From: Vreelandella halophila
Lineage (GTDB): Bacteria; Pseudomonadota; Gammaproteobacteria; Pseudomonadales; Oleiphilaceae
Assembly (NCBI RefSeq): GCF_009856365.1
Contig: NZ_WMEX01000003.1
Location: forward strand, 251,735-275,734
DNA: 24,000 nt
Reading direction: 5' to 3'
In this document: positions 3,654 through 23,467 of the stretch, piece after piece
How positions within the stretch are numbered: the stretch's first letter is position 1
Layout of the letters: the number at the start of each line of letters is the position of its first letter
Notes under the pieces: generated by a model
Databases searched by the model: none
Told to the model about the DNA's origin: nothing
What the model saw: only the letters and a program-made list of their open reading frames with translations
Translations under genes and position numbers: made by a program

Positions 3654-3664
3654 CACCCCTCCCA

Positions 3665-5963: not shown

Positions 5964-6311
5964 CTAATCCTCCATAAAAAGCTGCGTACTTTAGAGCCTA
6001 GTTTGACCATGCTTGGCCCATGCCTAGCCGCACCAATTCAAGGATCGGATGCAGGCTAAAACGGGTCAACTCCACGCCCGATCTTTTTGGTGTTTTTGTT
6101 CCAAAAACACTCAAGTTCGGCCCATCTGTATCTATCCAGCGCCCCTGATGAGGACTACGACCAGGATCGATTTTTGCTCGGTGGTCCACATTGCCCACTT
6201 ACTGACCACCCAATAACTTCTACGCCTCACCTACTTGAACCACCGGCCTACACTGTACATAATTACAGCTACGTTATTGGTTGATTGCATGGATCAAGTA
6301 GGGAAAAATGC

Positions 6312-6326
6312 GTGATATGCGATCAC
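6312..6326. promoter_or_regulatory. Inverted repeat GTGAT-N5-ATCAC about 30 nt upstream of the methyltransferase start (candidate operator)
   Basis: Read directly from the sequence. A second repeat, TTGAT-N7-ATCAA, lies at 6281-6297. The regulatory role is inferred only from position and from the HTH-like N-terminal extension of the methyltransferase. Confidence 0.2.
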
Positions 6327-6354
6327 ACGATCAACCCAGAGAAGGGACAAGGAC

Positions 6355-7791: not shown

Positions 7792-7848
7792 TGCTCCCGT
7801 CGGGCAGGATCAGTACAGATCTCTGCCCGACAGGAACAGCCGCAACTA

Positions 7849-9063
7849 ATGACAAGACTCTCCGACCACTTCAGCGGCGTATCAGCAAAACGCCTCAGCA
7901 TTGTTGAAACCAGCCGCAGCGACTCCAACCAGCACGAGTTCAACGGCACGGCCGGGATGAGGCAATATCTCGGCAAAGAGCGATCAACTTTCCCCGCCCG
8001 CTTTATATACATCGGAAATGATGAAGAAGATCGCCTGATGGTTGATGACCATGTCACCTGGTACGACTCCAGAGAGCGTCATCCGAATCGTTCCGAGCAT
8101 CGTCTCTACTTCCGGGACAATGACGTAATGAACCTCGCCTCTGAAGGTGATGTCATGATTGCAGCACTCGACCGGGAAGGGAACATGCTGCTTGTTATCG
8201 TCAGTGATGTGAGCCAGTTGCTGGGAGACGTATTATGGCTTTTCGGTCTTGGTGAGCTTCCCGGCTCCGCTTTCATAACCATTGAGACAGCGGAAAGTTC
8301 TCATGCCTCAGATGCACTGTTCTACTACATTGCAGAACAGGCCGGGATTCAGATTGAGGAGAAAGTCAGCGATTCCTGGCTGGATCTGATTTTGGAAAGA
8401 TTCGGCCCCGTCTTTCCCAGAAGCCGCCAACTCTCCGCCTTGGCCCTTGAGTCGCTGGACGGAGAAATATCCCCGGTTGAGGAGCCCGACAACACACTTA
8501 TTCGGTTGCTGGACCGGGAAGAAAGGATGTTCCGGGAGCTTGAACGTCATATCGTTTCCAGTGAGCTCCGAAACAGGACTGAAACCTGGGCGGAGAACGT
8601 GGATGATTTCATTTCGTTTTCTCTGGGAGTACACAATCGCAGGAAATCCCGTGCAGGCCATTCACTGGAGAATCACCTTGAATGGATCTTCACGGAGAAC
8701 AGGCTTGAATTCCAGCGAGGCGTTCATACCGAAAATCGATCCAAGCCGGACTTTCTATTCCCTGGATCCGCACATTATCAGGACCCGAACTGGCCCGCAG
8801 ACCGTCTGACAATGCTGGGAGTAAAAACCTCATGCAAGGATCGCTGGCGCCAGGTTCTGAACGAAGCAGCCCGAATCCCCGAAAAGCATCTTCTCACCCT
8901 CCAGCCGGGAATATCCGAACACCAGACTCGAGAAATGGACGGAGCGAACCTTAGACTGGTGTTGCCGAGAAATCTCCACCGAACATACTCAACTTCTCAG
9001 CAAAGCTCTCTGATGGATCTGGATCTGTTCATCAATGAGGTTTTGAAGAAACAGGCGGCTTAA
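7849..9063 (+). CDS. Type II restriction endonuclease, EcoRII-C catalytic family, with a divergent EcoRII-N-like N-terminal region
   Basis: The C-terminal half matches my memory of the EcoRII catalytic domain (RRKSRAGHSLENHLE, KPDFLFP, KTSCKDRWRQVLNEA, LLTLQPGIS). The N-terminus has AKRLSIVETSRSDSNQHEFNG, reminiscent of the EcoRII-N KRLSANDTG..GHQ signature. At 404 aa it is the same size class as EcoRII. It lies directly downstream of the MTase. Confidence 0.8.
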   Translation: MTRLSDHFSGVSAKRLSIVETSRSDSNQHEFNGTAGMRQYLGKERSTFPARFIYIGNDEEDRLMVDDHVTWYDSRERHPNRSEHRLYFRDNDVMNLASEGDVMIAALDREGNMLLVIVSDVSQLLGDVLWLFGLGELPGSAFITIETAESSHASDALFYYIAEQAGIQIEEKVSDSWLDLILERFGPVFPRSRQLSALALESLDGEISPVEEPDNTLIRLLDREERMFRELERHIVSSELRNRTETWAENVDDFISFSLGVHNRRKSRAGHSLENHLEWIFTENRLEFQRGVHTENRSKPDFLFPGSAHYQDPNWPADRLTMLGVKTSCKDRWRQVLNEAARIPEKHLLTLQPGISEHQTREMDGANLRLVLPRNLHRTYSTSQQSSLMDLDLFINEVLKKQAA

Positions 9064-9093
9064 GGAGCAGCACCGACTCCGGGAGAAAAAAGC

Positions 9094-9579
9094 GTGGTGG
9101 ACATCAAGAACAGGGACCAGCGCTCACACAATATGTCTGCGATCCGCGGGAAGGACACTAAACCGGAAATGCTTGTCCGGCGGTATCTTCATTCCTGCGG
9201 CTACCGGTTCCGCCTTCACCGAAAAGATCTCCCAGGCAAACCGGATCTGGTCATGCCGAAGTATCAGCTCGTCATTTTCGTGCATGGCTGCTTCTGGCAC
9301 AGGCATGAGAACTGTCGATACTCAACAACCCCCTCCAACAGATCCGAGTTCTGGCAGGAGAAATTCGCGAAGAACGTTGAACGGGATTCCAGAAACAGGG
9401 AGGCGCTTCTTGAATCCGGATGGAGGGTGCTGATCATCTGGGAATGCGGGCTTAAACACGCTAAAGACGAACTGCCGGAGCTTTCCCGTCTTATTGAAAA
9501 TAACACTGGTTTTCAGGTCTGGCCTGCAACTCCCCCAAAGCCGAGAGCGCTTTCTAACGTTATTCAAAAACGTGGCTAG
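9094..9579 (+). CDS. vsr: Very short patch repair (T:G mismatch) endonuclease
   Basis: Similar to E. coli Vsr along its length: RSHNMSAIRGKDTKPE, LPGKPDLVMPKYQLVIFVHGCFWH, EFWQEKFAKNVERD and GWRVLIIWEC. GTG start at 9094. Confidence 0.9.
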   Translation: MVDIKNRDQRSHNMSAIRGKDTKPEMLVRRYLHSCGYRFRLHRKDLPGKPDLVMPKYQLVIFVHGCFWHRHENCRYSTTPSNRSEFWQEKFAKNVERDSRNREALLESGWRVLIIWECGLKHAKDELPELSRLIENNTGFQVWPATPPKPRALSNVIQKRG

Positions 9580-10513
9580 CATGCCATTCCAATGCCGTCT
9601 CGTGCGGCATAAACCTCTCATTTTCCGGACGTCGCACAAACTGCCCGGAAAGCTCTTTCAGCTCATTATTGACCGGCAACGCACTCGCTGCCTCGGAGAC
9701 CTGTATCTGCATCTCAGGTGTCACAGTAAAGAGACCGTTATCAAAAGCCCAGTGATGATTCGGGCACAAAGCCAATCCATTACGTGGATCATCAGTGCCT
9801 CCTGCCGCCACAGGAATAATGTGCGCCGCCTGGGCTGCTGCCGGTCCCTCGGGGACACTTAATCCCGAACCACAGACGCAGCAGCGATAGCCATATTCAC
9901 TTAGAACCAGTCTGGAGAATGCTGCTCTTCTGACAGGCTTGCGTGCATTACTATTACGATGGTTTCGATCTGCAAACCCGAGGAATTCTTCCTGTGTCTG
10001 CGCCCAGAGGGTTGATTCTTCGTTCTCAATTCCATTCGTGCTTAAGACTTGCTCGCCAAGCACCCCGGAACGTCTATTGTTAACGCGAGATTGCAACTCC
10101 GCGTATCCGGAATCGTTTCGCCGAATAAGCTGAAAGCAATAACGTTCTGGCTGGTCAAGATGTCTCCGTATAAGAAGGAAGTCACCCGCTACTGCCTCGT
10201 TTAGTAGAGGGCGCAAGTTGTCAGTAACACGTGTCTCCGGGTTACGGGTAGCTCCCCATGTCTGGTACTGATACCGTGAGTTTACTCGTTTCAGGAACAC
10301 AAGCCCCAGATAAAGGTCCGCCTGAATCCTCACGCCGGCAGTATTTTGTCCAAGTGGTAGTTCCGGAAAATATTGCCGAAGATCTGTAGGCAAAAGAAAT
10401 CCGGCTTGATGGCCTCTTGCTTGCCCCGTGTCATTACGAGGCAAACGCTTAAAGAGGGGGTTGTCCCAGTCATTGACATTTGGGAGCTCGTTAAGAATTT
10501 CAGATAATGACAT
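9560..10513 (-). CDS. EcoRII-N-like (B3-type pseudobarrel) DNA-binding domain fused to an HNH endonuclease domain
   Basis: N-terminal FKRLPRNDTGQARGHQAGFLLPTDL closely resembles the EcoRII effector-domain signature IKRLSANDTGATGGHQVGLYIP. The C-terminal part has CCVCGSGL....AAHIIPVAAGGTDDPRNGLALCPNHHWAFDNGLF, an HNH motif. The 3' end overlaps vsr convergently by 20 nt. Confidence 0.8.
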   Translation of the reverse strand: MSLSEILNELPNVNDWDNPLFKRLPRNDTGQARGHQAGFLLPTDLRQYFPELPLGQNTAGVRIQADLYLGLVFLKRVNSRYQYQTWGATRNPETRVTDNLRPLLNEAVAGDFLLIRRHLDQPERYCFQLIRRNDSGYAELQSRVNNRRSGVLGEQVLSTNGIENEESTLWAQTQEEFLGFADRNHRNSNARKPVRRAAFSRLVLSEYGYRCCVCGSGLSVPEGPAAAQAAHIIPVAAGGTDDPRNGLALCPNHHWAFDNGLFTVTPEMQIQVSEAASALPVNNELKELSGQFVRRPENERFMPHETALEWHASHVFE

Positions 10514-10673
10514 ATAAAAAATTTCCGAAATTGAGCCAGAGCTCTACTTCTAACATTATAGAAAGAAGATTTTTTCATACATTGACCGCACCTTTAAAAG
10601 GGGGACGCTCACGATCGGTGCCGCTACTATAAGGTTGCAATTGTGTAGCTACCCATAATCATCCCTACAAGCG

Positions 10674-12032
10674 CTACTGCTCGGCAGCCCCATCCAAATC
10701 TTTACCGGGATCGTCATCCTCCTCCTTCTCAACCGGATCCCGCCGATTAATCCTAGGGGGCGGCGCCACCCAGGCCCGGAGCCTCTGCCCTACCTGTTCA
10801 TAGAATCGCGGCACCGCTGCTTCCAGTTCATCAATGAAGACCTTGTTCCCGGCGAAGCGTCCGGCCAGGTCGACCATGTAGAAGACTTCAAACTTCGAGG
10901 GCACGACGTTGGTGGTGTCGGAATCTAGGGCGTTGGCGTCGTTCATCAGTGTTTCCAGTGGCGCCTGGGTTTCCTCGGCGTTGCCAGTGCGGAAGGCTTT
11001 CACGAACATGTCATTGGTTTCGGCCTTGGTGAGCTGTCGTGTCAGCCAGTTGACCCGGGCCGATGTGCGTTTCTTGTCCTTGGGCGCGCTTAGCTTCATG
11101 GAGCAGGAAATGGTTCGCTTGGTGAGGTTGGCAACCACCTCGATGTCCGTGGCGGCGTGGGGCACGTCCAGCACGCAGCGCAGGACCTGTTCGTTCACCA
11201 GCGTCTCGCAGTCGTCCTTGAGCCGTGCCTGGGGGTCGGTGCGGTGCGCGCGTGAGAGCTTGAGGCCGACGTTCTGGCCCAGCTTGCGGCTCATAATCAG
11301 GCAGAGATCACGCTGTTCCTGGTGCCAGCAGGAGACGGTGTTGATCACATCCTCGGAGTTCTTGCCCAGCGATGCCCCACTCTTCACGTGCCCGACCACG
11401 TCCTTCCATTCCGGGTTCATGCGGTCGAAGTTGGAGACGCCGCTGGAGTCGTGGCTGAGGTACCGCTGGACTTCCTCCAGCACGAACTGCTGGTCCTCGG
11501 ATTCAACGCCGTCCTGTTCCAGCAGCAGGGTCGCCTGGGTGAGCGCGTACATCCAGGACCAGTGATAGAGTTCGACGCTCTTGAGGTATTTCTTAGGGAG
11601 CTTGATGGGGTGATGGGTGGGCAGCGCGACAAACTGGTTGGAGATGGTGATGACAGCGTCCAGCTTGTTCTCCTTGGCGATCTGCAGGTACTGCTTGAGC
11701 TGTTCCTCCCCCACCTCGGCGTTGCCGATCTTGGCTTCAATCAACGCCCGCCACTGCTTCTTGCCCGTGTCCAACACCAGCAACCCGTCCGGCCGCTCCT
11801 GCTTGGGCACCTTGGGATCAGACTGGAAGACCACCTCCGTCCACGCCTCCACCTTCGCCTTCTTCCCGACCCGTATGCCCAGGGAGTTGAGCATGATCTT
11901 CTGGAACTCATGCACACCCCGGAACGCGGCCAGCAGGATGGAGGCGGCGCGTTGCTCTTTGTTTGAGTCGGCGGTGACGGGGATGAGGCGGGCAATCTCG
12001 CCACGGGTAACGCAGTCCGGCAGGTCGATCAT
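10674..12032 (-). CDS. Hypothetical protein with a PD-(D/E)xK nuclease-like core (452 aa from ATG 12032)
   Basis: RPDGLLVLDTGKKQWRALIEAKIG fits a D...ExK restriction-endonuclease-fold motif, followed by ITISNQF. The rest is unassigned. The track ORF extends to 12200, but that extension reads through a 13-bp tandem repeat. ATG 12032 (M57, MIDLPDC) with an upstream AGGGA is preferred. The gene is GC-rich. Confidence 0.55.
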   Translation of the reverse strand: MIDLPDCVTRGEIARLIPVTADSNKEQRAASILLAAFRGVHEFQKIMLNSLGIRVGKKAKVEAWTEVVFQSDPKVPKQERPDGLLVLDTGKKQWRALIEAKIGNAEVGEEQLKQYLQIAKENKLDAVITISNQFVALPTHHPIKLPKKYLKSVELYHWSWMYALTQATLLLEQDGVESEDQQFVLEEVQRYLSHDSSGVSNFDRMNPEWKDVVGHVKSGASLGKNSEDVINTVSCWHQEQRDLCLIMSRKLGQNVGLKLSRAHRTDPQARLKDDCETLVNEQVLRCVLDVPHAATDIEVVANLTKRTISCSMKLSAPKDKKRTSARVNWLTRQLTKAETNDMFVKAFRTGNAEETQAPLETLMNDANALDSDTTNVVPSKFEVFYMVDLAGRFAGNKVFIDELEAAVPRFYEQVGQRLRAWVAPPPRINRRDPVEKEEDDDPGKDLDGAAEQ

Positions 12033-12094
12033 GGCTGCTTGTCCCTGGTTGGTGGTTCTCACGTCGCTGTGCAATGCAGCGGCTGAATACCCTG

Positions 12095-12165
12095 CCTTGC
12101 AAACCGGCCTTGCAAACCGGCCTTGCAAACCGGCCTTGCAAACCGGCCTTGCAAACCGGCCTTGA
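12095..12165. repeat. Perfect tandem repeat, 13-bp unit CCTTGCAAACCGG x5 plus a partial sixth unit (CCTTGA)
   Basis: Read directly: units at 12095-12107, 12108-12120, 12121-12133, 12134-12146 and 12147-12159. It lies in the divergent intergenic region between the PD-(D/E)xK gene (start 12032) and toxin 1 (start 12326). The paralogous locus at 17961-17976 carries only one degenerate unit (TTCTGAAACTGG-CCTTGA). Confidence 0.95.
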
Positions 12166-12325
12166 TTCAGCGTAGCAGACAACAGTGCAATGGGGATCAT
12201 AAAAGGCCATGGCGGTAGGGCCTTCGCTTGACACCGGAATCGACGGTTTGGAAGATACGCCTGTCGTCACGGAGACAGGGAAGACGACACCCAAGGACGA
12301 AACAGATTCAAGGAGCGAGCCCACC
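12158..12325 (+). repeat. Conserved non-coding leader upstream of toxin gene 1 (copy 1 of 2)
   Basis: 168 nt that align with 17971-18139 (169 nt) with only scattered substitutions and a 1-nt indel (GACACCCAAGG vs GACACCCCAAGG). The indel breaks any common reading frame, so the conservation is not protein-coding. The leader contains a GTCGTC-N14-GACGAC hairpin and an AAGGAG SD. Confidence 0.85.
12228..12256 (+). promoter_or_regulatory. Candidate sigma70-type promoter TTGACA-N17-GAAGAT inside the conserved leader
   Basis: A perfect -35 hexamer at 12228-12233 and a weak -10 at 12251-12256. The identical arrangement is present in copy 2 (18041-18069). No transcript data. Confidence 0.25.
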
Positions 12326-13342
12326 ATGCCCCACGTTGTAAGCGCCCCCTGCGGAATGAGCAGTCGCCGGCTGGCGGAACGCCACCTCCGGAGCAACGAC
12401 GACGAAACCACCCGGCAACTCCAGGAAAACCTCGAACGGAACAACTCTAGCAAGCTCAGTAATGGCACCACCAAGATGCCGGCGCTGATCGTAACGCCGG
12501 ATGGAACCCGGGTGAGCGAGCGAGAGGAAACCGAATGCGACCGCCTGAGCAAGGACCTGGATCGGCTCCAGAGGCGGCTTGGCCAGGAGAACTACCGCAA
12601 ACTTGTTGAGCTTACCAACACTGCCGGTCCGGAGGCGCTCAGCGTTGTTATGGCGGCCGAGCGGTGGGTTCAGAAGCATAAGGACTCACTGTCTATGGGC
12701 CTTGGCCTGACAGGTGGTGCGGTTTCCGGCGCAAAAAGCCGACTGGACGAGTTCGGCAAATCGCTGGCCCGTTACGAGGATGCCCTTAATACCTATCTGC
12801 TCAGTAAACATACACCAGCTGCCAAGCGTGCCAAGGCAAGAGAAGCGGCTCAGCGAGCCTTTAAGGATCTCAACAGTCGCTTTGCGGCGGAACTGGAAAC
12901 GATGGCTCAGAGTTCCCGCTACAAAAATTGGGTCCACAATCCTTTCCGGAGCTTCGCTGGTGGCGTTGAAGCTTCCTTCAATAGCAGTGGCAGCCCCATC
13001 AATTCCCTGCCCGAAACCAAAAGGCTCAACCTGGGTCTTAGTGCAACGCGGGTTCTGAGTAAAGGGACGTTTGCGCTTGACCTTGTGAGTCGTGGGACTC
13101 GGGTCATGTACAGTGACAACAAGGATTATCAGCTGGCCAAGGAAGCAACGAGCCTTGCGTTTTCTCTGGGCGGTGCCTCAATTGTAGCCCAGGGCGTAAC
13201 GCTCGGTTTAACCCTGGTGTTGGCTCCAACTGGGCTGACGCTAATCGTCAGCGTCGCAGCCGCATCCGCACTTTCTGCTGTCATTATCGATCTCCTTGTC
13301 CGAGATATTTTTGACGCGTCCGCTAACGCGTTAACCGACTGA
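12326..13342 (+). CDS. Putative membrane-active (colicin-like pore-forming?) polymorphic toxin, copy 1 (338 aa)
   Basis: ATG 12326 is preceded by AAGGAG at 10-nt spacing. This start is shared with the paralogue, whereas the upstream in-frame extension from 12209 is not. The central region is helical and charged. It ends in a ~55-aa hydrophobic Gly/Ala/Leu-rich stretch (LGGASIVAQGVTLGLTLVLAPTGLTLIVSVAAASALSAVIIDLLV) plus a short amphipathic tail (RDIFDASANALTD). A small membrane protein gene follows immediately. Confidence 0.55.
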   Translation: MPHVVSAPCGMSSRRLAERHLRSNDDETTRQLQENLERNNSSKLSNGTTKMPALIVTPDGTRVSEREETECDRLSKDLDRLQRRLGQENYRKLVELTNTAGPEALSVVMAAERWVQKHKDSLSMGLGLTGGAVSGAKSRLDEFGKSLARYEDALNTYLLSKHTPAAKRAKAREAAQRAFKDLNSRFAAELETMAQSSRYKNWVHNPFRSFAGGVEASFNSSGSPINSLPETKRLNLGLSATRVLSKGTFALDLVSRGTRVMYSDNKDYQLAKEATSLAFSLGGASIVAQGVTLGLTLVLAPTGLTLIVSVAAASALSAVIIDLLVRDIFDASANALTD

Positions 13343-13351
13343 GAGGGTTTC

Positions 13352-13777
13352 GTGATATTCATAGCCAATCCGTGCGACAGCGTCATTCTGGGTTATCTGA
13401 TTCCGATTGTGATGTTCCCGGTTATCCCACTCATGATATTGGCGTATCCCATTTTAGGCCGACATTTTGACGAGAAAGTACACAACCGGGAATCTCCGGA
13501 TTTCTGGATTGGGCCAATAGGGACTTTCATCGCGCGACCGGTGGGCTATGCGTTCTATATCGTCGTTAACGTTGATTGGGACAAGCTCGAAGCACGTGCG
13601 AGACGGCGTAACCCTGACCACAACCCTGTAGCCCTGCTTACCAGAACCTATGGCCACATTGATTTTCGCGGCGAGGCTAACACCCTGCAGATCGGGCTGA
13701 GCTGGCTTTACGTGCTATCGCTTTCCTTAACGGTGCTACTCGCTTTCATTCATGCTTTCTGCAAATACGTACTATGA
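13352..13777 (+). CDS. Putative cognate immunity protein 1, 141-aa integral membrane protein (about 3 TM segments)
   Basis: GTG start 9 nt after the toxin stop, with a GAGAGGG SD. Hydrophobic segments at the N-terminus, middle and C-terminus. Conserved YPxLGRHFD and DWxK motifs are shared with two paralogues (14565, 19166). Confidence 0.6.
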   Translation: MIFIANPCDSVILGYLIPIVMFPVIPLMILAYPILGRHFDEKVHNRESPDFWIGPIGTFIARPVGYAFYIVVNVDWDKLEARARRRNPDHNPVALLTRTYGHIDFRGEANTLQIGLSWLYVLSLSLTVLLAFIHAFCKYVL

Positions 13778-14295
13778 AATGGCTATCCTCAATCGCCGGT
13801 CTACTGATTGTTGGCCTTCTCGGCTATTCCGGCCTGAGCTTCTACGTTCTGCAGGCAAGCAGCCCAGATACCAACGCGTCCTGCGCTATCGGTGACAGCG
13901 GGACTCATATCCCTCAATTCGCCTGCCGTTGGTATCTTGAGCATCAACTGACTAGTAAAAGAGAAAGCGGCGATGCCCAGAGTGTGCTTCACTTGGCAAT
14001 CGGCGCTTACCCAACAGATCCCGAGCAAGCTCAGGAGATTATGGAGCTGGCCCTTTCTGAAGGCGCACAGATCAACGATTTCTCGCCGGTGACCGGTTAT
14101 CCCCCATTGCATGAGGCGGTCCTGCTCAACGAGCCGCGGCTTGCTGAATTCCTCCTCCAGAGAGGAGCCGATCCGGAGATAGAGGATCAAAACAAGGAGG
14201 TGACGGCGCGTGAACTGCTGTCGGCTATTGAGGAGCGGAATCCGGAAAAGGATCTGTCAAGGATGGTGACACTGTTACAAGAGGAACGAGAATAG
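13774..14295 (+). CDS. Ankyrin-repeat protein with N-terminal signal-anchor/TM segment
   Basis: ATGA start/stop overlap with immunity gene 1. N-terminal hydrophobic IAGLLIVGLLGYSGLSFYVL. ANK-like repeats are present (TGYPPLHEAVLLNEPRLAEFLLQRGADPEIED). Confidence 0.7.
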   Translation: MKWLSSIAGLLIVGLLGYSGLSFYVLQASSPDTNASCAIGDSGTHIPQFACRWYLEHQLTSKRESGDAQSVLHLAIGAYPTDPEQAQEIMELALSEGAQINDFSPVTGYPPLHEAVLLNEPRLAEFLLQRGADPEIEDQNKEVTARELLSAIEERNPEKDLSRMVTLLQEERE

Positions 14296-14402
14296 GAAAG
14301 CGGCAGGAACGGGAACATACGGCTGTCAATTCACTCGAGGCAGGTCAGCTCAAGCTGATCGAAGGCTTATGGCCAGAGCCGCTGCGGACAACTTTTTTCA
14401 GG

Positions 14403-14552
14403 GAACCTGTTTTTGTCTTTGCTCTTGTAGGCGGTCCAGGAGGGCTTGTTCTTCTAATCAGCACGGCTGCAGTTGGCAGGTTGGCCGCTTACGGCGGGGA
14501 CTCCTTTGGACGCCTGCTGTTTGATACCGCTGCAGAACCACTGGTCGACTGA
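14403..14552 (+). pseudogene. Orphan 3' fragment of a third toxin allele (C-terminal ~49 codons, no start codon)
   Basis: The frame ending at TGA 14550-14552 translates to EPVFVFALVGGPGGLVLLISTAAVGRLAAYGGDSFGRLLFDTAAEPLVD. This aligns with the toxin 3 C-terminus AAFGLTLVLGPSGLVLLITLTSIGALTAYNTDLIARDLFDDTAEALLK. Similarity is lost upstream of ~14400. An immunity paralogue follows 12 nt later. Confidence 0.6.
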
Positions 14553-14564
14553 AAGGTCATTGTT

Positions 14565-14990
14565 ATGGATGCCAGTTCGTTGTGTGAAAGCACCTTTGTT
14601 GGGATCCTGGTTCTCATAGTCGGGCTCCCTCTTCTTCCTTGTGTGCTGCTCGGCTATCCACTGCTTGGCCGACATTTCGACCCGTTGATCCGCGAAAGGG
14701 CCTTCCCTGATTTCTGGCTAGGACTCCTCGGGACGCTCATCATGCGACCGATTGGGTACGCCCTACTCGTTGTAGTGAATCCCGACTGGGAAAAGATCAG
14801 GGCCAAGAACAGCCATCGGGATAACAAAGGGGTTGATCTGGTCGCGATGTACCTCCGGACCTATGGCGGTATCGACTACCGCAATGAATCCAGTTGGCTG
14901 CAGTTCGGATTCAGCCTGATTTATGTGTCGTCGTTACTCCTGATAGTGCCGCTGGGCCTACTGCTTGCTCCATGCAGTTGGTCTGGATAA
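14565..14990 (+). CDS. Putative immunity protein 2 (141-aa membrane paralogue, paired with the orphan toxin fragment)
   Basis: Same length and same motifs (YPLLGRHFDP, RPIGYAL, NPDWEK, RTYGGIDY) as the proteins at 13352 and 19166. Confidence 0.6.
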   Translation: MDASSLCESTFVGILVLIVGLPLLPCVLLGYPLLGRHFDPLIRERAFPDFWLGLLGTLIMRPIGYALLVVVNPDWEKIRAKNSHRDNKGVDLVAMYLRTYGGIDYRNESSWLQFGFSLIYVSSLLLIVPLGLLLAPCSWSG

Positions 14991-14998
14991 AAAAAAGC

Positions 14999-15466
14999 AT
15001 GACTTCGGTCTTTTGCCTGACATTGACCTGTTCAGGCTGTGTAACAGCAGAACCCATGCCGGCGAAAGCCCGGTATATGGCTTTTGAGGAGGCCCTTAGC
15101 GATACAGACGATAACCGCACCTACGGCAAGTACCTCTCGAACCGACTTATGTCCTTTCATAAAAAGGCTGCGTCGAAGGAAGAGCAGGATTCCTACCGAA
15201 AACCGGGCGCTTTCCCGTTGTGGCTAACGGAAGAAACCGCATTCCACGAACGCAGCCGTGCTGAAGGGCAATGCGTGACGGTTTCAGGTAAGACATATGA
15301 TGGCAAACCGGGCTATGTAGCCATTCGCTATATCAAGGAGCACGGCTCCTTGAAGGCAGATGACATTCACTATGAATACCTGGAAACGCGCCAGGATTTC
15401 CCTTCGGAAGCCATATGCCCGGATGAGATAACGCTGTCATTTCCCAGCGACGAAGATGGGCAATGA
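14999..15466 (+). CDS. Putative secreted protein or lipoprotein, function unknown (155 aa from ATG 14999)
   Basis: The track ORF starts at 14894 inside the immunity gene. ATG 14999 gives a signal-peptide-like MTSVFCLTLTCSGCVTA. No family recognised. Confidence 0.4.
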   Translation: MTSVFCLTLTCSGCVTAEPMPAKARYMAFEEALSDTDDNRTYGKYLSNRLMSFHKKAASKEEQDSYRKPGAFPLWLTEETAFHERSRAEGQCVTVSGKTYDGKPGYVAIRYIKEHGSLKADDIHYEYLETRQDFPSEAICPDEITLSFPSDEDGQ

Positions 15467-15827
15467 ACAGCACCAAAGGACCTGGAATCTCGGTCCACAA
15501 ATGGTTTTCCCTCTCGCGGGTACACTGGTTGTTGGTTTCCTCGGCTATACCGGGCTGGGGCTGGGGTTGCGGAGCCTGCACACTGCGGACATAGAGGATG
15601 TATCACTCTGCGTGACCGAGGACAATACCCACGAGGCCAAACAACGGTTAAGAATTCAATCTGGAAATGCTGCCCTGTGTCACCCCCCTTACTACAACAC
15701 TATTCGAGCCACTCAATGCTCCCATCCAGCGCAACGAGTAAGAGTGAGAGTGTTGTCCTGGACTTGGCAAGGTCTGGGAGGCGATGCCACAAACCGCGGT
15801 ACTGTTTCAGATCTGGCAGGGCGATAG
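15456..15827 (+). pseudogene. Probable 3'-truncated paralogue of the ankyrin/TM gene (similarity only over the first ~60 codons)
   Basis: LAGTLVVGFLGYTGLGLGLRSLHTADIEDVSLCVTEDNTH aligns with IAGLLIVGLLGYSGLSFYVLQASSPDTNASCAIGDSGTH of the 13774 product. Similarity stops near nt ~15636. The rest of the ORF runs antisense into the convergent gene 15700-16320 and has no ANK repeats. Confidence 0.35.
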
Positions 15828-16320
15828 AATATGAAGCATTAGGATCATCCATCCGTTGAAGCGTCTCTCCAAGGATCCCGAGAAAATAGTTAACCCTCAT
15901 TGGCGATCTCGACCCCGGTCCTTTCACTTCAATGATCCAGCGCTCGGAACCACGATTGGCCTCGATATCGATACCCTGCACGCTGCCCCAGGCCACTTGA
16001 GTGCTCCAGCGGGCACGCTGAAGCCATTGATCCAGTACTTCCTTGATCTCATCTTCGGATAGCGCCTCCAGGTCATGGTTCTTCTGCTGGCTTCTGCCAG
16101 TAGGCGCCTCATGACGTTCAGCATTGCCTTTATAATTCCCAATCAGGCCATCTGCGCGCCTTTGCCTGACGACAACTCCTTTGGACTCCAATCCCCGCGC
16201 AGTCTGATTAACAGGTTGTTGAGGAGCACTGGCGCCTCGTAGCTGACTGGTAATCTCACGATCAGTCATCCCGGGTGATTTGGAGATGAGCTGAAGAATT
16301 TGGTCGGTCAGACTCCCCAT
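15700..16320 (-). CDS. Winged-HTH (MarR-like) N-terminal domain fused to a PD-(D/E)xK restriction-endonuclease-like domain
   Basis: N-terminal LTDQILQLISKSPGMTDREITSQL....ARGLESKGVVVRQRR is wHTH-like. C-terminal GIDIEANRGSERWIIEVKG fits D...ExK. A TAGGAGG SD lies 8 nt upstream of ATG 16320. Last gene of a three-gene minus-strand cassette. Confidence 0.6.
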   Translation of the reverse strand: MGSLTDQILQLISKSPGMTDREITSQLRGASAPQQPVNQTARGLESKGVVVRQRRADGLIGNYKGNAERHEAPTGRSQQKNHDLEALSEDEIKEVLDQWLQRARWSTQVAWGSVQGIDIEANRGSERWIIEVKGPGSRSPMRVNYFLGILGETLQRMDDPNASYSIALPDLKQYRGLWHRLPDLAKSRTTLSLLLVALDGSIEWLE

Positions 16321-16365
16321 TGGAAGACCTCCTAAGCTTCCGTTCCTATAAGCAGGACAGACACG

Positions 16366-17211
16366 CTATTTCACCAGTGACTCTATCCAGGAGAAAGCTT
16401 CCGGGTAATCACTCGTATCAAGCACAAACTCCTGTCCACGCGGAACACACTGGAGCCGGCACTGCTCCCCGTCCAACTGCCAGCGGCTCAGATCGTCATG
16501 CTGGCTCAATGGCCGTTTCCCTTCGGAAGGATAGAAAAAGCCTGGGAGTTGCCACACGCTGACCTTTTTGCTGCCCGGCACGGTAAGCCGTAGCTCATCG
16601 TTCATACTCTGGAACACGCCTGCACCCTGAATCCTCATGGGCCCTCGCCCCAGATCCAAGCTCTCGCGCGCAATATATAGCGTATTAGAGGGTTTTGCCT
16701 CACGGTGAAAGTGTGGGTGATCCTGCACCCACGGCAACCTTTCTCCCAATGCTCCATCAACCGGACTGACCTCTTCAACCTGAAGCCATCCCCAGAGGGC
16801 ATGGAATGGAGCCGATTGCCTGTCAAAGCGCCATCGCCCATCGACACGCTCAACGCGACGGAAAAGACCAAAGAACAGGAACAGGTCACCCTCCGAGACG
16901 CCTTGATTTCGCAGATGCCCCTGAGCCTGATCAATCTGCCCCAGGGTGGGACGCCAACCAGGTTTTCGGGAAGTCAGTTCAGGTGCCAGGTCCGGATCCA
17001 GGTGAGCCCTGTGATCCCTCCGTTTAGGATTCCCGGTCAGGTCGGCAACCAGTTCACCGACGTTGATGCCTTCATACTGCAGATCGCTGTAACGTACCGA
17101 AGATTGTTTATCCGGTATGGGTAGCGACAGGAAACTGCCATCCGGAAATACAGGGCTCGGGCAACCGCCTGCACTGGAATCGAAACCTTTACGGCTCAGT
17201 ATCAGCTTCAT
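16366..17211 (-). CDS. Nmad3-like protein (nucleotide-modification-associated domain 3; assignment from memory, unverified)
   Basis: The N-terminus MKLILSRKGFDSSAGGCPSPVFPDGSFLSLPIP matches my recollection of proteins annotated as Nmad3 family. Its ATG (17209-17211) overlaps the TGA of the upstream gene (ATGA coupling). Confidence 0.5.
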   Translation of the reverse strand: MKLILSRKGFDSSAGGCPSPVFPDGSFLSLPIPDKQSSVRYSDLQYEGINVGELVADLTGNPKRRDHRAHLDPDLAPELTSRKPGWRPTLGQIDQAQGHLRNQGVSEGDLFLFFGLFRRVERVDGRWRFDRQSAPFHALWGWLQVEEVSPVDGALGERLPWVQDHPHFHREAKPSNTLYIARESLDLGRGPMRIQGAGVFQSMNDELRLTVPGSKKVSVWQLPGFFYPSEGKRPLSQHDDLSRWQLDGEQCRLQCVPRGQEFVLDTSDYPEAFSWIESLVK

Positions 17212-17873
17212 CAGCAGCTTCCGCAGGACTGTATCTGGGACGTACTTTCTTCATCTTTCCAGTAATGCGGCAATCCGTGACAACCTGGCTTGAACTCAGA
17301 GCGGACGTAGTCAATAAATTCCCTAGCTCGCGCCCGCTCCGTCCCCCATCCATGGGCCGCCTGCCCTTTCGGCACCTTAGGTCGGATTTCAGGAGGAAGG
17401 TACATCGGGTCCCTTCCAAAATAATAGAATTCGTCTGCTATCAGCACATACCGGCCGCCGATATCCGTCTCGCGGTGACCCAAATCAGGCCCGGATTCTG
17501 TCCAATGATTAGGATTTATCAATTGCTCAAAATGCGCTGGCTCGTGAGCCCATTCGCTCAGGGGCCGATAAATATTATCTCCGGTTTTGGGATAGGGCCC
17601 TTTAGTCTTCATGTTGGGGATTTTGTCCTGAAACCGCGGGTCCCAGAAGTAATCGCGAATCAGTGTCTTCTCCCCTACCCGCATCAGGTACACCAGTCTT
17701 TCATCACCAACCGGGTCTCCGTTCAGTTCCCCTGATGTAAACCCCGCAATCCAGTCACCGACACGTTTACATCGGCGAATTTCAGGCTTACAGGTGGCAA
17801 GCGTAAGCGTGTGGCCAAAAGGGTTGGGTGCGAAGCCTGAGTCATGGGTTATTTTGTACGAGAAGAGTCTCAT
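17211..17873 (-). CDS. Nmad2-like protein (nucleotide-modification-associated domain 2; assignment from memory, unverified)
   Basis: The N-terminus MRLFSYKITHDSGFAPNPFGHTLTLATCKPEIRRC matches my recollection of Nmad2-family proteins. An AAGGGAG SD lies 4 nt upstream of ATG 17873. Confidence 0.5.
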   Translation of the reverse strand: MRLFSYKITHDSGFAPNPFGHTLTLATCKPEIRRCKRVGDWIAGFTSGELNGDPVGDERLVYLMRVGEKTLIRDYFWDPRFQDKIPNMKTKGPYPKTGDNIYRPLSEWAHEPAHFEQLINPNHWTESGPDLGHRETDIGGRYVLIADEFYYFGRDPMYLPPEIRPKVPKGQAAHGWGTERARAREFIDYVRSEFKPGCHGLPHYWKDEESTSQIQSCGSC

Positions 17874-17970
17874 TAAGCTCCCTTGAGGGCCTCGGCTTGC
17901 GCCACGTGCCTTCGCTCAGGCCATGGCAGAAATTCCAAACCTTGGAGTGGAGTTGACCCGTTCTGAAACT

Positions 17971-18139
17971 GGCCTTGATCCAGCGTAGCAGAGAACAACG
18001 CAATGGGGATCATAGAAGGCCATGGCTGTAGGGCCTTCGCTTGACACCGGAATCATCGGTTTGGAAGATACGCTCGTCGTCACGGACACAGGGAAGACGA
18101 CACCCCAAGGACGAAACAGATTCAAGGAGCGAGCCCACC
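17971..18139 (+). repeat. Conserved non-coding leader upstream of toxin gene 3 (copy 2 of 2)
   Basis: Aligns with 12158-12325 (see that entry). Contains the same TTGACA-N17-GAAGAT (18041-18069), hairpin and SD. Confidence 0.85.
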
Positions 18140-19156
18140 ATGCCCCACGTTGTAAGCGCCCCCTGCGGAATGAGCAGTCGCCGGCTGGCGGAACGCCACC
18201 TCCGGAGCAACGACGACGAGACCACCCGGCAACTCCAGGGAAACCTCGAACGGAATAACTCAAGTAAGCTCAGTAATGGCACCACCAAGATGCCGGCGCT
18301 GATCGTGACGCCGGATGGAACCCGGGTGAGCGAGCAGGAGGAAACCGAATGCGATCGCTTGAGCAAAGACCTGGATCGGCTCCAGAGGCGGCTTGGCCAG
18401 GAGAACTACCGCAAGCTGGCTGAGCTTACCAATACCACCGGGCCAGAGGCGCTCAGCGTTGTTATGGCGGCCGAGCGGTGGGTTCAGAAGCATAAGGACT
18501 CACTGTCTATGGGCCTGGGACTGACAGGTGGTGCGGTTTCCGGTGCAAAAAGCCGACTGGATGACTTCGGCAAATCCCTGGCCCAGTACGAGGATGCCCT
18601 TAACACCTACCTGCTCAGTAAGCATTCCCCGGCTGCACAGCGTGCTAAAGCAAGAGAGGCAGCTCAGCGAGCTTTTAAGGATCTCAACGGGCGCTTTGCG
18701 GCGGAACTGGAGACAATGGCCCAGAATTCCCGCTACAAAAGTTGGGTGCACAATCCTTTCCGGAGTTTCGCTGGCGGGGTTGAGGCCTCCTTCAATACCA
18801 GTGGTAGCCCTATAAGTTCCCTGCCCGAGACACAGAGGCTTAATATCGGCCTGGGGGCAACGCGGGTACTGGGCAAAGGGGCTTTTGGACTTGATCTTGT
18901 AGCTAGAGGCTATCGGGTCGCGTATAGCGACAACAAGGACTATACCCTCGCCAAAGAAGCAGCAACCTTTGCAGTTTCCGGGCTTGTCACTTCTATCGTC
19001 GTTCGAGGAGCTGCGTTTGGGCTTACCTTGGTTCTGGGGCCGAGCGGGCTTGTACTACTGATCACTTTAACCAGCATTGGCGCACTTACAGCCTACAACA
19101 CTGATCTGATAGCCCGTGATTTGTTCGACGATACGGCTGAAGCCCTCCTGAAATAG
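18140..19156 (+). CDS. Putative membrane-active polymorphic toxin, copy 2 in full length (338 aa)
   Basis: Starts MPHVVSAPCGMSS exactly as in 12326. It is near-identical to copy 1 for ~270 aa, then diverges through the hydrophobic C-terminus (VSGLVTSIVVRGAAFGLTLVLGPSGLVLLITLTSIGALTAYNTDLIARDLFDDTAEALLK). The track start 18041 is the TTG of the TTGACA box and lies in a frame not shared with copy 1. Confidence 0.55.
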   Translation: MPHVVSAPCGMSSRRLAERHLRSNDDETTRQLQGNLERNNSSKLSNGTTKMPALIVTPDGTRVSEQEETECDRLSKDLDRLQRRLGQENYRKLAELTNTTGPEALSVVMAAERWVQKHKDSLSMGLGLTGGAVSGAKSRLDDFGKSLAQYEDALNTYLLSKHSPAAQRAKAREAAQRAFKDLNGRFAAELETMAQNSRYKSWVHNPFRSFAGGVEASFNTSGSPISSLPETQRLNIGLGATRVLGKGAFGLDLVARGYRVAYSDNKDYTLAKEAATFAVSGLVTSIVVRGAAFGLTLVLGPSGLVLLITLTSIGALTAYNTDLIARDLFDDTAEALLK

Positions 19157-19165
19157 GATAGCTCT

Positions 19166-19591
19166 ATGATTTTTGCCTCGAATCCCTGTGACAGCCTGAT
19201 TCTGGGATATCTGATTCCGATTGCCATGCTGCCACTGATCCCGATGATGGCTCTGGCTTACCCGCTACTCGGTCGCCATTTTGACCCGATGATCCAGCAT
19301 CGCGAGTCGATTGATTTCTACATGGGGCCATTGGGGACATATCTCATACGTCCTGGTGGATATGCTCTTTTCATCGTCATGAACATGGACTGGAAAAAGC
19401 TTGAGGAACGTGCCACACGCCGTAATCCGGACGTAAACCCTATGGGTCCCACAATTCGGACCTACGGGAGTATTGATTTCAAAAGCGAGGCGAACGCCTT
19501 TCAGATCGGATTCAGCTGGCTTTATATCCTGCTGGTAGCGCTCACCGTAGTGCTCGGCTTCATTTATACGTTCTGCAAGCACTTTCTTTGA
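19166..19591 (+). CDS. Putative cognate immunity protein 3 (141-aa membrane paralogue)
   Basis: ATG 9 nt after the toxin stop. Same length and motifs as 13352 and 14565 (YPLLGRHFDP, RPGGYALFIV, MDWKKLEE, RTYGSIDF). Confidence 0.6.
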   Translation: MIFASNPCDSLILGYLIPIAMLPLIPMMALAYPLLGRHFDPMIQHRESIDFYMGPLGTYLIRPGGYALFIVMNMDWKKLEERATRRNPDVNPMGPTIRTYGSIDFKSEANAFQIGFSWLYILLVALTVVLGFIYTFCKHFL

Positions 19592-19593
19592 GC

Positions 19594-19695
19594 GGAGCAG
19601 TGGTTCTCCATAAATTCATGAAGAAGGATCAGAAAATACCTGCTAAGGACATAAAGCTCGCGCGAGAGCGCATGAAGGAGGTGAAAAAACGATGA
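19594..19695 (+). pseudogene. 3' remnant of a HigB/Gp49-like (RelE-superfamily) toxin gene
   Basis: Translation GAVVLHKFMKKDQKIPAKDIKLARERMKEVKKR* matches the characteristic C-terminus of Gp49-like toxins (hGFxKKTQKTPxxEIxxAxxRxKE). Its TGA overlaps the ATG of the downstream HTH gene (ATGA). The upstream frame runs straight into immunity gene 3, so the N-terminal ~70 codons are missing. Confidence 0.55.
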
Positions 19696-19973
19696 GCCTC
19701 GATACGCTTAAGAAGGAGGCCCTTCAGGACGACAAAGTGAAGGCCGAGTACGACAAGCTGGCTCCGGAATTTGAGCTGATTGACCAACTCCTTTCCATGC
19801 GTAATAGCGCGGGCCTGACCCGGCAGGAACTTGCTGAACGCATGGGGACGCAGAAATCCAACGTGAGCAGGTTGGAGCACGGACGGAGCAACCCGAGCTG
19901 GAGGATGCTCACCCGCTATGCGCATGCCTGTGGTTATGAGCTAAAACTAACGACACTGGAGCGCTCAGCGTAA
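19692..19973 (+). CDS. XRE-family HTH protein (HigA-like antitoxin, now orphaned)
   Basis: The HTH LTRQELAERMGTQKSNVSRLEHGRSNPSWRMLTRYAHACG is typical of antitoxins encoded downstream of Gp49-like toxins. 93 aa. Confidence 0.8.
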   Translation: MSLDTLKKEALQDDKVKAEYDKLAPEFELIDQLLSMRNSAGLTRQELAERMGTQKSNVSRLEHGRSNPSWRMLTRYAHACGYELKLTTLERSA

Positions 19974-20263
19974 CCGCTGTCATCGCTCCAGCGTCCCCTT
20001 GAATTCCCCAGCACCTGAAGCTCTCCAAAGGTTCTTATTCCATCAGCAGGCATGTTGCACTCTACTAGGGTCAATCCGGGACTTTGGCGATTATGGACGT
20101 CTCTGGGAGGCGTGAACAGCGCACACTAGGGCCAGCTCCTACCTACCTCTGGTGTCTTGCCATACGCTACCGGCGAACTGCCAAGAAATCCTTGGTAGTT
20201 GCCAACCGACTCGGCACCTAAAGCGTTACCATTGCAGCTGCAAAAACCAGAAAGCTACTGGCC

Positions 20264-20998
20264 TCAACACTCTTTAACCCATATCCACCCTTCCTTGGTG
20301 GCCAGGGCCTGGTCTTCTGGCCCCATCACCTTTCCCCACAGAAAGTCGTGGGCGGCAAGCAGGCAGATCACCGCATCTAATGCATCTGACTTACTTTCCA
20401 TGGCCGGAATCGGCACATCAATCCTGATGAGGGAACCAACGGCGTGAGCCACACGCTCTCGCGCCTCTTGGCCTTTGGCGGCCTTATACCCGGTACTTTC
20501 AATCCCGTGAGCCACCAGGGTTGCGGCAGGATAGACTTCGATGGCGCGCAGTCCCTCGACCTCCGGCTGCCAAGCCAGTGTGATCGGCCGCTGCAGTAAA
20601 TGGCGCAGGGATTCCAATAACTCAAGCGCGGCATGCGCGGTCCGGGCAATTCGGTCAGCACCCACATCCAGGGACTGTTTACCGATTCGCTCGCGGATGA
20701 ACCGGTCTGTTTCTCTTCGGAACAGGTAATTGGCGCTGCCAGCCAGTGAGTCACCGGCATTGTGATTCACCAGCGACTGCGCCATTGGTTCGGGCCAGCC
20801 CAATGGGGCATCCATCGCAAGCAGGGTCGGCCCGCTTCGGTTGGAAAGCCAATCCGCAATCGCCTGCGCCGGGAGCAGATCATTGCTCCCCAGTGCCGCT
20901 CCCTCGACAACGGTGCCATTCTCCGAGAAGGTGCCAAAAGCGTAGCCGACATTCCTGGGGTCGGAGGCGCAGTCAATGCCGACGATATTGATGGTCAT
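20264..20998 (-). CDS. DUF429-like protein (predicted RNase H-fold nuclease family)
   Basis: N-terminal IVGIDCA, mid EVYPAA and C-terminal SDALDAVICLLAAHDF fit my memory of DUF429 conserved positions. Unverified. Confidence 0.5.
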   Translation of the reverse strand: MTINIVGIDCASDPRNVGYAFGTFSENGTVVEGAALGSNDLLPAQAIADWLSNRSGPTLLAMDAPLGWPEPMAQSLVNHNAGDSLAGSANYLFRRETDRFIRERIGKQSLDVGADRIARTAHAALELLESLRHLLQRPITLAWQPEVEGLRAIEVYPAATLVAHGIESTGYKAAKGQEARERVAHAVGSLIRIDVPIPAMESKSDALDAVICLLAAHDFLWGKVMGPEDQALATKEGWIWVKEC

Positions 20999-21034
20999 AC
21001 TGGTTCGCCACGGTTATGAAATACGTTCTCCTTG

Positions 21035-22513: not shown

Positions 22514-23410
22514 CTAATCCTTTGATTTCAGCTCATCGAGCAACTGATCCTTGCGCTCCCAAAGTGCTTCCTGCCACTGCTTGACCTGTTGGCGGTGGTT
22601 TTCATCCTCGTTGTAATTGCCGCCCAGCAGATGCTGTGGAATGGGCACCTGCTCAACACGGATGACGATATGGGTGACCCGCCCGCACATGAATTCCCAG
22701 AGCCCGGGGCGGCCGTTGGGGTAGGCAATGGTAATGTCGAGCAGAGTGGAGAGGGTGTCGCCCATGGCTTCCAGAACGAAGGCGGTGCCGCCGGCTTTGG
22801 GGCGCAGCAGATGCTTGTAGGGGGATTTCTGGCTGTCGTGTTTCTCGGGGGTGAAGCGGGTACCTTCCGGGAAGTTCATCACGCTGACCGGGGTATAGCG
22901 GAATTTCTCACAGGCGCGGCGGGTGGCCTCCATGTCCTCGCCGCGTTTCTCCGGGTGTTTCTGCAGATACTCCCGGGAATAGCGCTTCATGAACGGAAAG
23001 TCGAGTGCCCACCAGGCCAGCCCGATCACCGGCACCCAGATCAGCTCCTGTTTGAGGAAGAACTTCAGGAACGGAATGCGCCGGTTGAAGATGTGCTGCA
23101 GGGCGAAAATATCCACCCAGCTCTGATGGTTGCTCATCACCAGGTACCAGCCCTCGCGGCTGAGCCCTTCCACCCCGGAGACATCCCAGGTGGTGCGGTG
23201 GGTGAGGCGCATCCAGCCACTGTTGCAGGCCACCCAGCACTGCGAGATCCCGATGATCAGGCGCGTGCAGAACACCCGCCAGGCACGGATCGGGATGATC
23301 AGCTTCAGTATGCCCGGGATATAGAGCAGCACACACCAGAAGACGGTGTTCACCGCGAGCAGCAGGGAGTTCAGTACGCCGAGTAAGGGTTTGGGGAGAA
23401 AGTTGAGCAT
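22514..23410 (-). CDS. Membrane acyltransferase of the PlsC/YihG (lysophospholipid acyltransferase) family
   Basis: HX4D motif SNHQSWVDI. Downstream FPEGTR motif. N-terminal TM segments. 298 aa. Confidence 0.8.
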   Translation of the reverse strand: MLNFLPKPLLGVLNSLLLAVNTVFWCVLLYIPGILKLIIPIRAWRVFCTRLIIGISQCWVACNSGWMRLTHRTTWDVSGVEGLSREGWYLVMSNHQSWVDIFALQHIFNRRIPFLKFFLKQELIWVPVIGLAWWALDFPFMKRYSREYLQKHPEKRGEDMEATRRACEKFRYTPVSVMNFPEGTRFTPEKHDSQKSPYKHLLRPKAGGTAFVLEAMGDTLSTLLDITIAYPNGRPGLWEFMCGRVTHIVIRVEQVPIPQHLLGGNYNEDENHRQQVKQWQEALWERKDQLLDELKSKD

Positions 23411-23467
23411 AGAGCAAGCCGGCCATCGAATGATTCATCGCCATTGTTCGATGAGTTGGGCCAGGGA

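Follow-up and report, generated by a model that had tools for sequence, protein, structure and literature searches.

Do three neighbouring genes that read like one operon form one defence system? The question is raised by positions 15700 to 17873 of a 24,000-nucleotide stretch of the Vreelandella halophila genome (RefSeq assembly GCF_009856365.1, contig NZ_WMEX01000003.1, positions 251,735 to 275,734), referred to below as the window. Three co-directional open reading frames (ORFs) lie there on the minus strand: an Nmad2 gene (17211..17873, 220 aa), an Nmad3 gene (16366..17211, 281 aa), and, after a spacer of 45 nt, a gene for a 206-aa protein that we call P3 (15700..16320). An original prediction, made from the letters of the window, took them for a three-gene cassette with a restriction-modification-like or abortive-infection logic that had been inserted as a unit. 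The ORFs, with their coordinates and quoted N-termini, and the 45-nt spacer are as the prediction described them. The unit is a different one: we are highly confident that the real unit is the Nmad2-Nmad3 pair, of which these are the first and second genes, and that P3 is a stand-alone gene that adjoins the Nmad module without being part of it. Our overall best explanation, to which we assign a probability of roughly 0.6, is a two-gene Nmad2-Nmad3 module with a putative defence role, lying beside an unrelated P3.

A comparison with close relatives separates the pair from P3. Two metagenome contigs, L090 (31.7 kb) and L091, are about 97% identical in nucleotide sequence to the window on both sides and carry P3 at 98% amino acid identity, and they lack exactly window positions 16361 to 17945, which hold Nmad2 and Nmad3. 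This presence/absence segment (minus strand, 1585 bp) comprises a 72-bp leader, Nmad2, Nmad3, and a 5-bp tail. L090 positions 5864-5963 align to window 18047-17946 (81%) and continue straight into window 16360, and L090 5962-9911 aligns to window 16360-12410. Since the boundary at 16360/16361 cuts the 45-nt spacer that separates Nmad3 from P3, P3 and its ribosome-binding site belong to the resident flank. Microhomology at the breakpoint amounts to 2 nt (CT). In a repeat search, no repeats, either direct or inverted, bounded the segment at 16361 and 17945, and it bears no transposon- or integron-like signature; a near-identity DNA search with the locus returned nothing from E. coli genomes and plasmids. 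The segment 16361-17945 is a real mobile unit, and insertion here and deletion in the relative both fit. By either route the pair and P3 are separable. Here only Nmad2 and Nmad3 vary relative to L090, with P3 resident, and the proposed insertion of all three genes as a unit is not confirmed.

The same separation is seen in more distant genomes. Nmad3 was surveyed at 80 genome loci, with 8 kb on each side where the contig allowed, and P3 at 80 metagenome loci, about 30 of which had at least 1.6 kb of upstream sequence. A P3 homologue was found at none of the 80 Nmad3 loci outside this genome, and neither Nmad2 nor Nmad3 at any of the 80 other P3 loci. Four further P3 contigs have unrelated neighbours. 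The original prediction had named absence of synteny in other genomes as a refutation of the trio, and the trio is not syntenic elsewhere. The three-gene system is an artefact of adjacency.

Why, then, do these genes look like one operon? They do so because the pair separates P3 from what is probably its native upstream region. The segment upstream of Nmad2 (17946..18047, no strand assigned) abuts the P3 ribosome-binding site in L090, which has no Nmad genes, and is probably the native upstream or promoter region of P3; we infer the promoter role. Part of this segment recurs at 12149-12234. In a scan for promoters and terminators, sites were no commoner than in shuffled sequence, no consensus promoter was found in 17946-18047, and no terminator-like site was found in the Nmad3-P3 spacer. 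In this strain Nmad2, Nmad3, and P3 may be co-transcribed. Shine-Dalgarno-like sequences precede the Nmad2 gene (AAGGGAG) and the P3 gene (TAGGAGG); only a weak GGAAG precedes Nmad3, so the good ribosome-binding site that had been ascribed to every gene is found at the first and third but not at the second.

What holds Nmad2 and Nmad3 together? In the window the two genes meet at TGATG (17209..17213, minus strand), in which base 17211 alone belongs both to the Nmad2 stop and to the Nmad3 start. This junction had been read as a 4-nt ATGA overlap, but the overlap is 1 nt. The shared base suggests translational coupling of the two genes. A hidden Markov model scan placed Nmad2 at 17 of the 80 Nmad3 genome loci, immediately upstream in nearly all of them, and in 22 of 22 pair loci outside this genome the stop codon of Nmad2 runs into the start of Nmad3, with overlaps of 1, 4, 10, or 16 nt. 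Hosts of the pair include Pseudomonas, Marinobacter, Microbulbifer, Planctomycetes, Bacteroidales, Spirochaetes, Acidobacteria, Binatia, and others. The two also occur as one polypeptide, P0417 (485 aa), with Nmad2 at residues 2-191, Nmad3 at 207-468, and no Met at the fusion junction. The P0417 cluster contains two full-length fusions from independent assemblies, one from Candidatus Wallbacteria (HBC75910.1) and one from a 72.8-kb JGI contig. Overlap at every pair locus read and a natural fusion are both signs that Nmad2 and Nmad3 act together, probably as a complex; judged from this gene organisation, they almost certainly work as one complex. Neighbour clustering found no conserved third partner of the pair, and no conserved nuclease either. 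In a neighbour-joining tree of Nmad3, the paired versions are scattered over phyla on long branches.

The two family names given in the original prediction are correct, and both proteins score far above the Pfam cut-offs. Nmad2 matches Pfam family Nmad2 (PF18753) with an E-value of 3.8e-48 and 164.1 bits (cut-off 26.1) over its full length, residues 2-208 aligning to profile positions 3-199 of 200. Nmad3 matches family Nmad3 (PF18754) with an E-value of 4.7e-85 and 285.6 bits (cut-off 27), again at full length (residues 2-265 to profile positions 1-247 of 247); its database record is labelled 'MULTISPECIES [Halomonadaceae]'. In the analysis the window was placed on a 437-kb contig of assembly GCA_009856495.1. 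The invariant residues of Nmad2 are D11, N17, C28-K29, R33, W41, G98-D99-N100-I101-Y102, H123, and D137, a set that is kept in all contexts of the protein, whatever its partner. Those of Nmad3 are R7, K8, D11, D34, H70, D72, D74, R82, Q92, H99, D109, H165, H167, N176, and E261. Both families are large: a profile search of 1.84 billion cluster representatives gave 2785 members of the Nmad2 family, and Nmad3 comprises more than 7,300 sequence clusters. Pfam recognised no methyltransferase, glycosyltransferase, or other transferase domain in either protein. NCBIfam gave no usable match for Nmad2, Nmad3, or P3, and sequence and profile searches of the three against the PDB gave nothing meaningful.

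P3 has a different character. It has no match in Pfam, NCBIfam, or PADLOC, and its only PHROGs match is a weak one to a transcriptional activator. An AlphaFold2 (AF2) model built from 37 sequences, with a predicted local distance difference test (pLDDT) score of 86, consists of a winged helix (residues 1-64) that a disordered linker joins to an alpha-beta-beta-beta-alpha-beta core (H89-102, E106-109, E119-123, E126-132, H139-156, E162-169). With Foldseek the core matches XisH (2inb, E-value 2.7e-6), with further matches to AF2093, McrC, YaeQ, and NucS, and the N-terminus resembles the winged helices of MexR, PcaV, and Fur proteins over about 65 residues. Across the 37 sequences D118 and E131 are invariant and K133 is nearly so; EAK or EAT replaces EVK in two homologues. 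On the strength of the model, P3 is a winged helix joined to a predicted PD-(D/E)xK nuclease fold. The D...ExK nuclease-like core that had been noted in the third product (GIDIEA...ERWIIEVKG) is thus present, with its fold matched by Foldseek. Its description as a MarR-like winged helix is right as to the winged-helix fold, but Pfam and NCBIfam give no match to MarR and membership of that family does not follow. Some sources annotate members of the P3 family as 'MarR family transcriptional regulator'.

P3 homologues number about 1000. They adjoin housekeeping genes, among them pyrB-like genes, thiC, and dnaA-dnaN-gyrB, and neighbour clustering found no conserved partner. The family appears to be one of widespread, unnamed, solitary winged-helix PD-(D/E)xK proteins. 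The C-terminal half of the family is very conserved (GIDIDA...IEVKGPGS...MRVNYF..LGETLQRMDD; loci L003, L004, L088-L169).

Is the pair a defence system? An indication comes from the partners of Nmad2. DS-4 is a validated anti-phage operon of E. coli GCF_003333785.1 (DeWeirdt, Mahoney and Laub, Science 2026, PMC13092281) whose parts are a thymidylate synthase-like protein, a deoxynucleoside monophosphate (dNMP)/adenylate kinase, a 5-hydroxymethyldeoxyuridine (5-hmdU) DNA kinase-like protein, a TIR protein, and a 220-aa Nmad2 protein, DS-4E (WP_047174762.1). Another E. coli Nmad2 protein (WP_023143489.1) is listed in the same study as a predicted defence gene, and predicted systems that were not validated there join an NMAD domain with MazG/MazG-C and UDG (PMC13092281). 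Nine IMG/VR contigs carry Nmad2 without Nmad3, near integrases and MazG_C, UDG, TIR, radical-SAM, thymidylate synthase, and dCTP-deaminase-like genes. In P0489 (491 aa, from a 13-kb Logan contig, a singleton cluster), Nmad2 is fused to two TIR domains (ThsB_TIR and TIR_2). The P0489 fusion parallels the adjacent TIR and Nmad2 genes of DS-4. From these gene associations, Nmad2 appears to be a module that is reused with alternative partners in nucleotide-centred conflict systems, Nmad3 being one such partner.

The surroundings of the pair point the same way. The window has a variable region, from about 2766 to 21000, that is flanked by an IcmF-like methylmalonyl-CoA mutase on one side and by a metallophosphatase and an acyltransferase on the other. 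This island holds an AAA_15/DUF3696 ATPase with GmrSD_N, a Dcm/EcoRII-C/Vsr set, HNH_2, duplicated toxin/immunity-like modules, an HTH/Gp49 remnant, and DUF429. The region had been described as dense in defence genes, and the GmrSD_N, Dcm/EcoRII-C/Vsr, HNH, and AAA_15/DUF3696 ATPase genes bear this out. In a related genome (locus L087), where Nmad3 is 67% identical in protein sequence and the Nmad2-Nmad3 DNA is about 71% identical to the window, the pair is followed directly by the type I restriction-modification genes hsdM-hsdS-hsdR and by DUF429. L087 and the window share two flank segments (95% and 81% nucleotide identity) in a different order, so the island has been rearranged and not just refilled. 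In Pseudomonas the pair lies downstream of TniQ, with Wadjet JetA/B/C, an AEP-TOTE helicase, ParE/RelB, CcdA, GmrSD, and an M78-HTH regulator as neighbours. Pooled over 16 pair loci, the neighbours include ResIII (4), Eco57I methylase (3), type I restriction-modification (2), MADS mad2 (3), and HTH_3 (5), and also ordinary metabolic genes. No relative of Nmad2 or Nmad3 was found in 50,697 GenBank phage records, which argues that these are not phage self-modification genes, and Nmad3 is found on plasmids in 6 of 72,556 records.

How might such a module work? We picture Nmad2-Nmad3 as a translationally coupled module that would move as a 1.6-kb unit and has come to lie in a chromosomal defence island of a Halomonadaceae genome. 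Most likely it would act against phages, or in conflict more generally, with two subunits that bind a nucleotide or a nucleic-acid base and process it chemically. Nmad2, with the same Asp/Asn/Cys-Lys/Arg/His/Asp set throughout, would be the shared catalytic or ligand-sensing part. Nmad3, with its His/Asp/Glu cluster and its ability to exist alone, would be one alternative partner, the others being TIR domains and nucleotide-metabolism enzymes. P3 would be a resident solitary protein with no functional tie to the pair. The parts of this picture carry different weights. We infer a defensive role for the pair at somewhat better than even odds. Tentatively, and at rather less than even odds, the two proteins may suffice by themselves as an anti-phage system whose enzymology is new, for example one that alters or excises a phage DNA base or converts a nucleotide, possibly a phage-modified one, with Nmad2 reused alongside Nmad3, TIR, MazG-C/UDG, and thymidylate-synthase/kinase sets. 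Any specific base- or nucleotide-directed chemistry of the pair is speculative, and we would not expect a given guess to prove right. The original prediction of a candidate defence system survives in this narrower form, as a candidate role for the Nmad2-Nmad3 pair and not for the trio.

Several observations weigh against a defensive module. Nmad3 stands without Nmad2 at 63 of the 80 genome loci, and in the neighbour-joining tree the solitary copies of Marinobacter, of Halomonas and relatives, of Amphritea, and of Microbulbifer group into clades that span whole genera. Their neighbours are of a housekeeping kind (a mechanosensitive channel, metallophosphatase, ChrR cupin, epimerase, and LysR), and solitary Nmad3 looks like a core enzyme, not a defence gene. 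Nmad3 can therefore work without Nmad2 and is not exclusively a gene of defence islands. PADLOC-DB 2.0.0 gave no match for Nmad2, Nmad3, or P3 at E-values up to 1, and the tallies of defence neighbours given above are raw counts without a matched background. DS-4 was validated as a whole operon only, with its Nmad2 gene unmutated (PMC13092281), and the searched literature yielded no experimental work on Nmad3 or on the pair. The AF2 model of Nmad3 (pLDDT 93) has no significant structural match by Foldseek, the best E-values being 0.07 (PDB) and 0.05 (BFVD). The similar-looking N-termini of Nmad2 and Nmad3 do not mark them as paralogues, as BLASTP and hhalign show no relation (probability 0.6%). 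A full-text search turned up no paper on Nmad2 or Nmad3 by name, and of the literature hits only the DefensePredictor paper and its supplements (PMC13092281) were relevant; a paper on thymidine hypermodification and one on YprA do not mention the domains. The earlier statement that these genes have no experimentally known function thus needs amending for Nmad2, a homologue of which is part of the validated DS-4 operon (PMC13092281), and stands for biochemistry, no activity of either family having been demonstrated in the searched literature.

How do other explanations fare against this evidence? The main rival takes the pair for non-immune housekeeping or stress enzymes, which might, for instance, salvage, detoxify, or repair damaged or non-canonical nucleotides and happen to lie in a plastic region. 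The solitary Nmad3 genes kept across whole genera in stable, non-defence surroundings are what it would predict, as are the DinG-like helicase directly upstream in four Halomonas loci, the rarity of Nmad3 on plasmids (6/72,556), and the want of PADLOC matches. It accounts poorly for a pair that is present in one and absent from another of two near-identical strains, for pairs scattered over phyla on long branches, for their place in TniQ-linked (Tn7-like) cargo with Wadjet, TOTE, and toxin-antitoxin genes and beside restriction-modification genes, and for an Nmad2 that is fused or adjacent to TIR domains and forms part of the validated DS-4. We consider this rival unlikely, though it is the one to be taken most seriously, and we hold both of the models that follow to be less likely than it.

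One of these has the pair place a base modification on the DNA or RNA of its own cell or element, as an epigenetic self-mark or as anti-restriction acting in trans with restriction encoded elsewhere. The families are named for their association with nucleotide-modification genes, and sources speak of a 'putative DNA base modification enzyme with NMAD domain'; the DS-4 Nmad2 lies beside thymidylate synthase-like and 5-hmdU DNA kinase-like proteins, and in L087 the pair adjoins type I restriction-modification genes. Such a mark is nevertheless improbable, given that no cognate nuclease is conserved beside the pair, that the 50,697 phage genomes, in which self-protective DNA modification genes are common, hold no copies, and that no methyltransferase, glycosyltransferase, or other transferase domain can be recognised in Nmad2 or Nmad3. 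The last model is the original three-gene cassette with its restriction-modification-like or abortive-infection logic: modification or sensing would fall to Nmad2 and Nmad3, and P3 would be the nuclease effector. It draws on the co-directional, closely spaced genes with no terminator-like site between Nmad3 and P3, on the PD-(D/E)xK fold of P3 with conserved D118, E131, and K133, and on the defence-island setting. The logic fails on the genomes themselves: P3 stands alone in L090, a contig about 97% identical to the window in which the boundary falls within the 45-nt spacer, P3 is never found with Nmad2 or Nmad3 elsewhere (0/80 in each direction), the pair has no conserved nuclease partner, and P3 homologues sit beside housekeeping genes. 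We regard this cassette as very improbable. The two-gene module with a putative defence role, beside an unrelated P3, is the reading that we keep.

What else lies in the island? Three overlapping minus-strand genes at 2766-5963 are possibly a defence operon of their own: one product (299 aa) has no Pfam match, and the other two are an AAA_15/AAA_21/DUF3696 ATPase (370 aa) and a GmrSD_N protein (399 aa). A complete Dcm-type C5 cytosine methylase, an EcoRII-C endonuclease, and a Vsr very-short-patch repair gene occupy 6355-9579. After the Vsr set come an HNH_2 protein (9560-10513) and a 508-aa ORF without a family (10674-12200). Two paralogous modules, 12209-13342 with 13352-13777 and 18041-19156 with 19166-19591, each encode a protein of about 375 aa followed by one of 141 aa that is rich in hydrophobic, membrane-like segments. 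An orphan third 141-aa paralogue lies at 14565-14990 and an ankyrin-repeat gene at 13774-14295, the latter being the only gene of the array that matches a Pfam family. The modules have repeated 5' regions (12149-12234 and 17946-18047), and their copy number differs in L090. By its layout, this set of genes looks like a polymorphic toxin/immunity array. At 19692-19973, and in L001 at 6626-6721, an HTH_31/HTH_3 antitoxin-like gene stands beside a 31-aa Gp49 (HigB-like) fragment; this remnant looks like a degraded toxin-antitoxin pair at the island edge. A DUF429 gene, at 20264-20998 in the window and 7482-8152 in L087 (81% nucleotide identity), flanks the variable region in both.

Other copies of the two families add detail. 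In four loci from Halomonas and relatives (L015, L021, L077, L081), a DinG/XPD-like helicase of about 713 aa (DEAD_2 and Helicase_C_2) is encoded about 40 nt upstream of a solitary Nmad3 on the same strand. The two may form an operon, which would tie Nmad3 to DNA metabolism. In the relative represented by L085 and L086 (580-2197 and 2495-4112), a Fic-domain gene follows a solitary Nmad3 whose nucleotide identity to the window gene is about 73%. Only 1.1 kb separates this Nmad3 from an acyltransferase gene that is 88% identical in nucleotide sequence to window 22526-23433, the flank of the island, and Nmad3 may thus have resided in this part of the chromosome for a long time. In a Pseudomonas locus (L181, 7666-8530) gene calling left the Nmad3 position empty although the sequence there still matches the Nmad3 profile; this copy may be a pseudogene. 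Dickeya oryzae (L183, 7001-8015) has a solitary Nmad2 in a housekeeping setting, with only a 75-aa ORF downstream.

Why does this locus matter? Should the pair prove defensive, a function would be provided for more than 7,300 Nmad3 sequence clusters and some 2,800 Nmad2 representatives that are so far known from comparative genomics, and the recurrence of Nmad2 beside TIR domains and nucleotide-metabolism genes would become easier to explain. The presence/absence difference between the window and L090 defines a minimal segment of 1.6 kb. The solitary, genus-wide Nmad3 suggests an additional role outside immunity. There is a general caution as well, that a neat three-gene operon can be an accident of insertion.

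How do these proteins compare with known systems? The XisH-family and small PD-(D/E)xK proteins (2inb, 2okf, AF2093 2ph7, McrC, and NucS) share with the P3 model its core and the positions of D118 and E131-x-K133. Unlike XisH-family proteins, P3 has an N-terminal MarR/Fur-like winged helix on a disordered linker. For Nmad3, the top Foldseek matches are weak and PUA-like, namely McrB-N (6p0g), PH1033 (2hd9), ASCH (5guq), and YTH, at E-values of 0.07-0.5, and those in BFVD include ASCH proteins (E-value of at least 0.05). Matches of the Nmad3 C-terminus to the GRK2 PH domain (E-value about 0.2) were treated as noise. The likeness to PUA-like readers and enzymes (EVE, ASCH, YTH, and the McrB N-terminal domain) is non-significant, at a template-modelling (TM) score of at most 0.26 on the query, and in contrast to these proteins Nmad3 is twice as large and has a dense invariant His/Asp cluster. 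The modelled resemblance suggests a lead and not an assignment.

DS-4 is the experimentally validated relation of the pair. Over 153 residues DS-4E and the window Nmad2 share 37% identity (E-value 2e-28), and DS-4E keeps the conserved motifs. DS-4 lacks Nmad3, however, and its thymidylate synthase-like, dNMP kinase, 5-hmdU DNA kinase-like, and TIR genes were not found among the ORFs and called genes of the window. With four of the five DS-4 components absent, the window locus is not the DS-4 system. Set beside the Pfam Nmad2 and Nmad3 families, the window is one more instance of the recurrent order of Nmad2 followed by Nmad3 with overlapping stop and start, and its proteins are unremarkable representatives of two catalogued families, paired in the usual way. 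The window pair differs from other Nmad2-Nmad3 pairs only in the adjacency of P3, which is unique to this genome. What this locus offers to the comparison is a delimited 1.6-kb segment, evidence from fusion and coupling for a complex, and a link to a validated Nmad2-containing operon.

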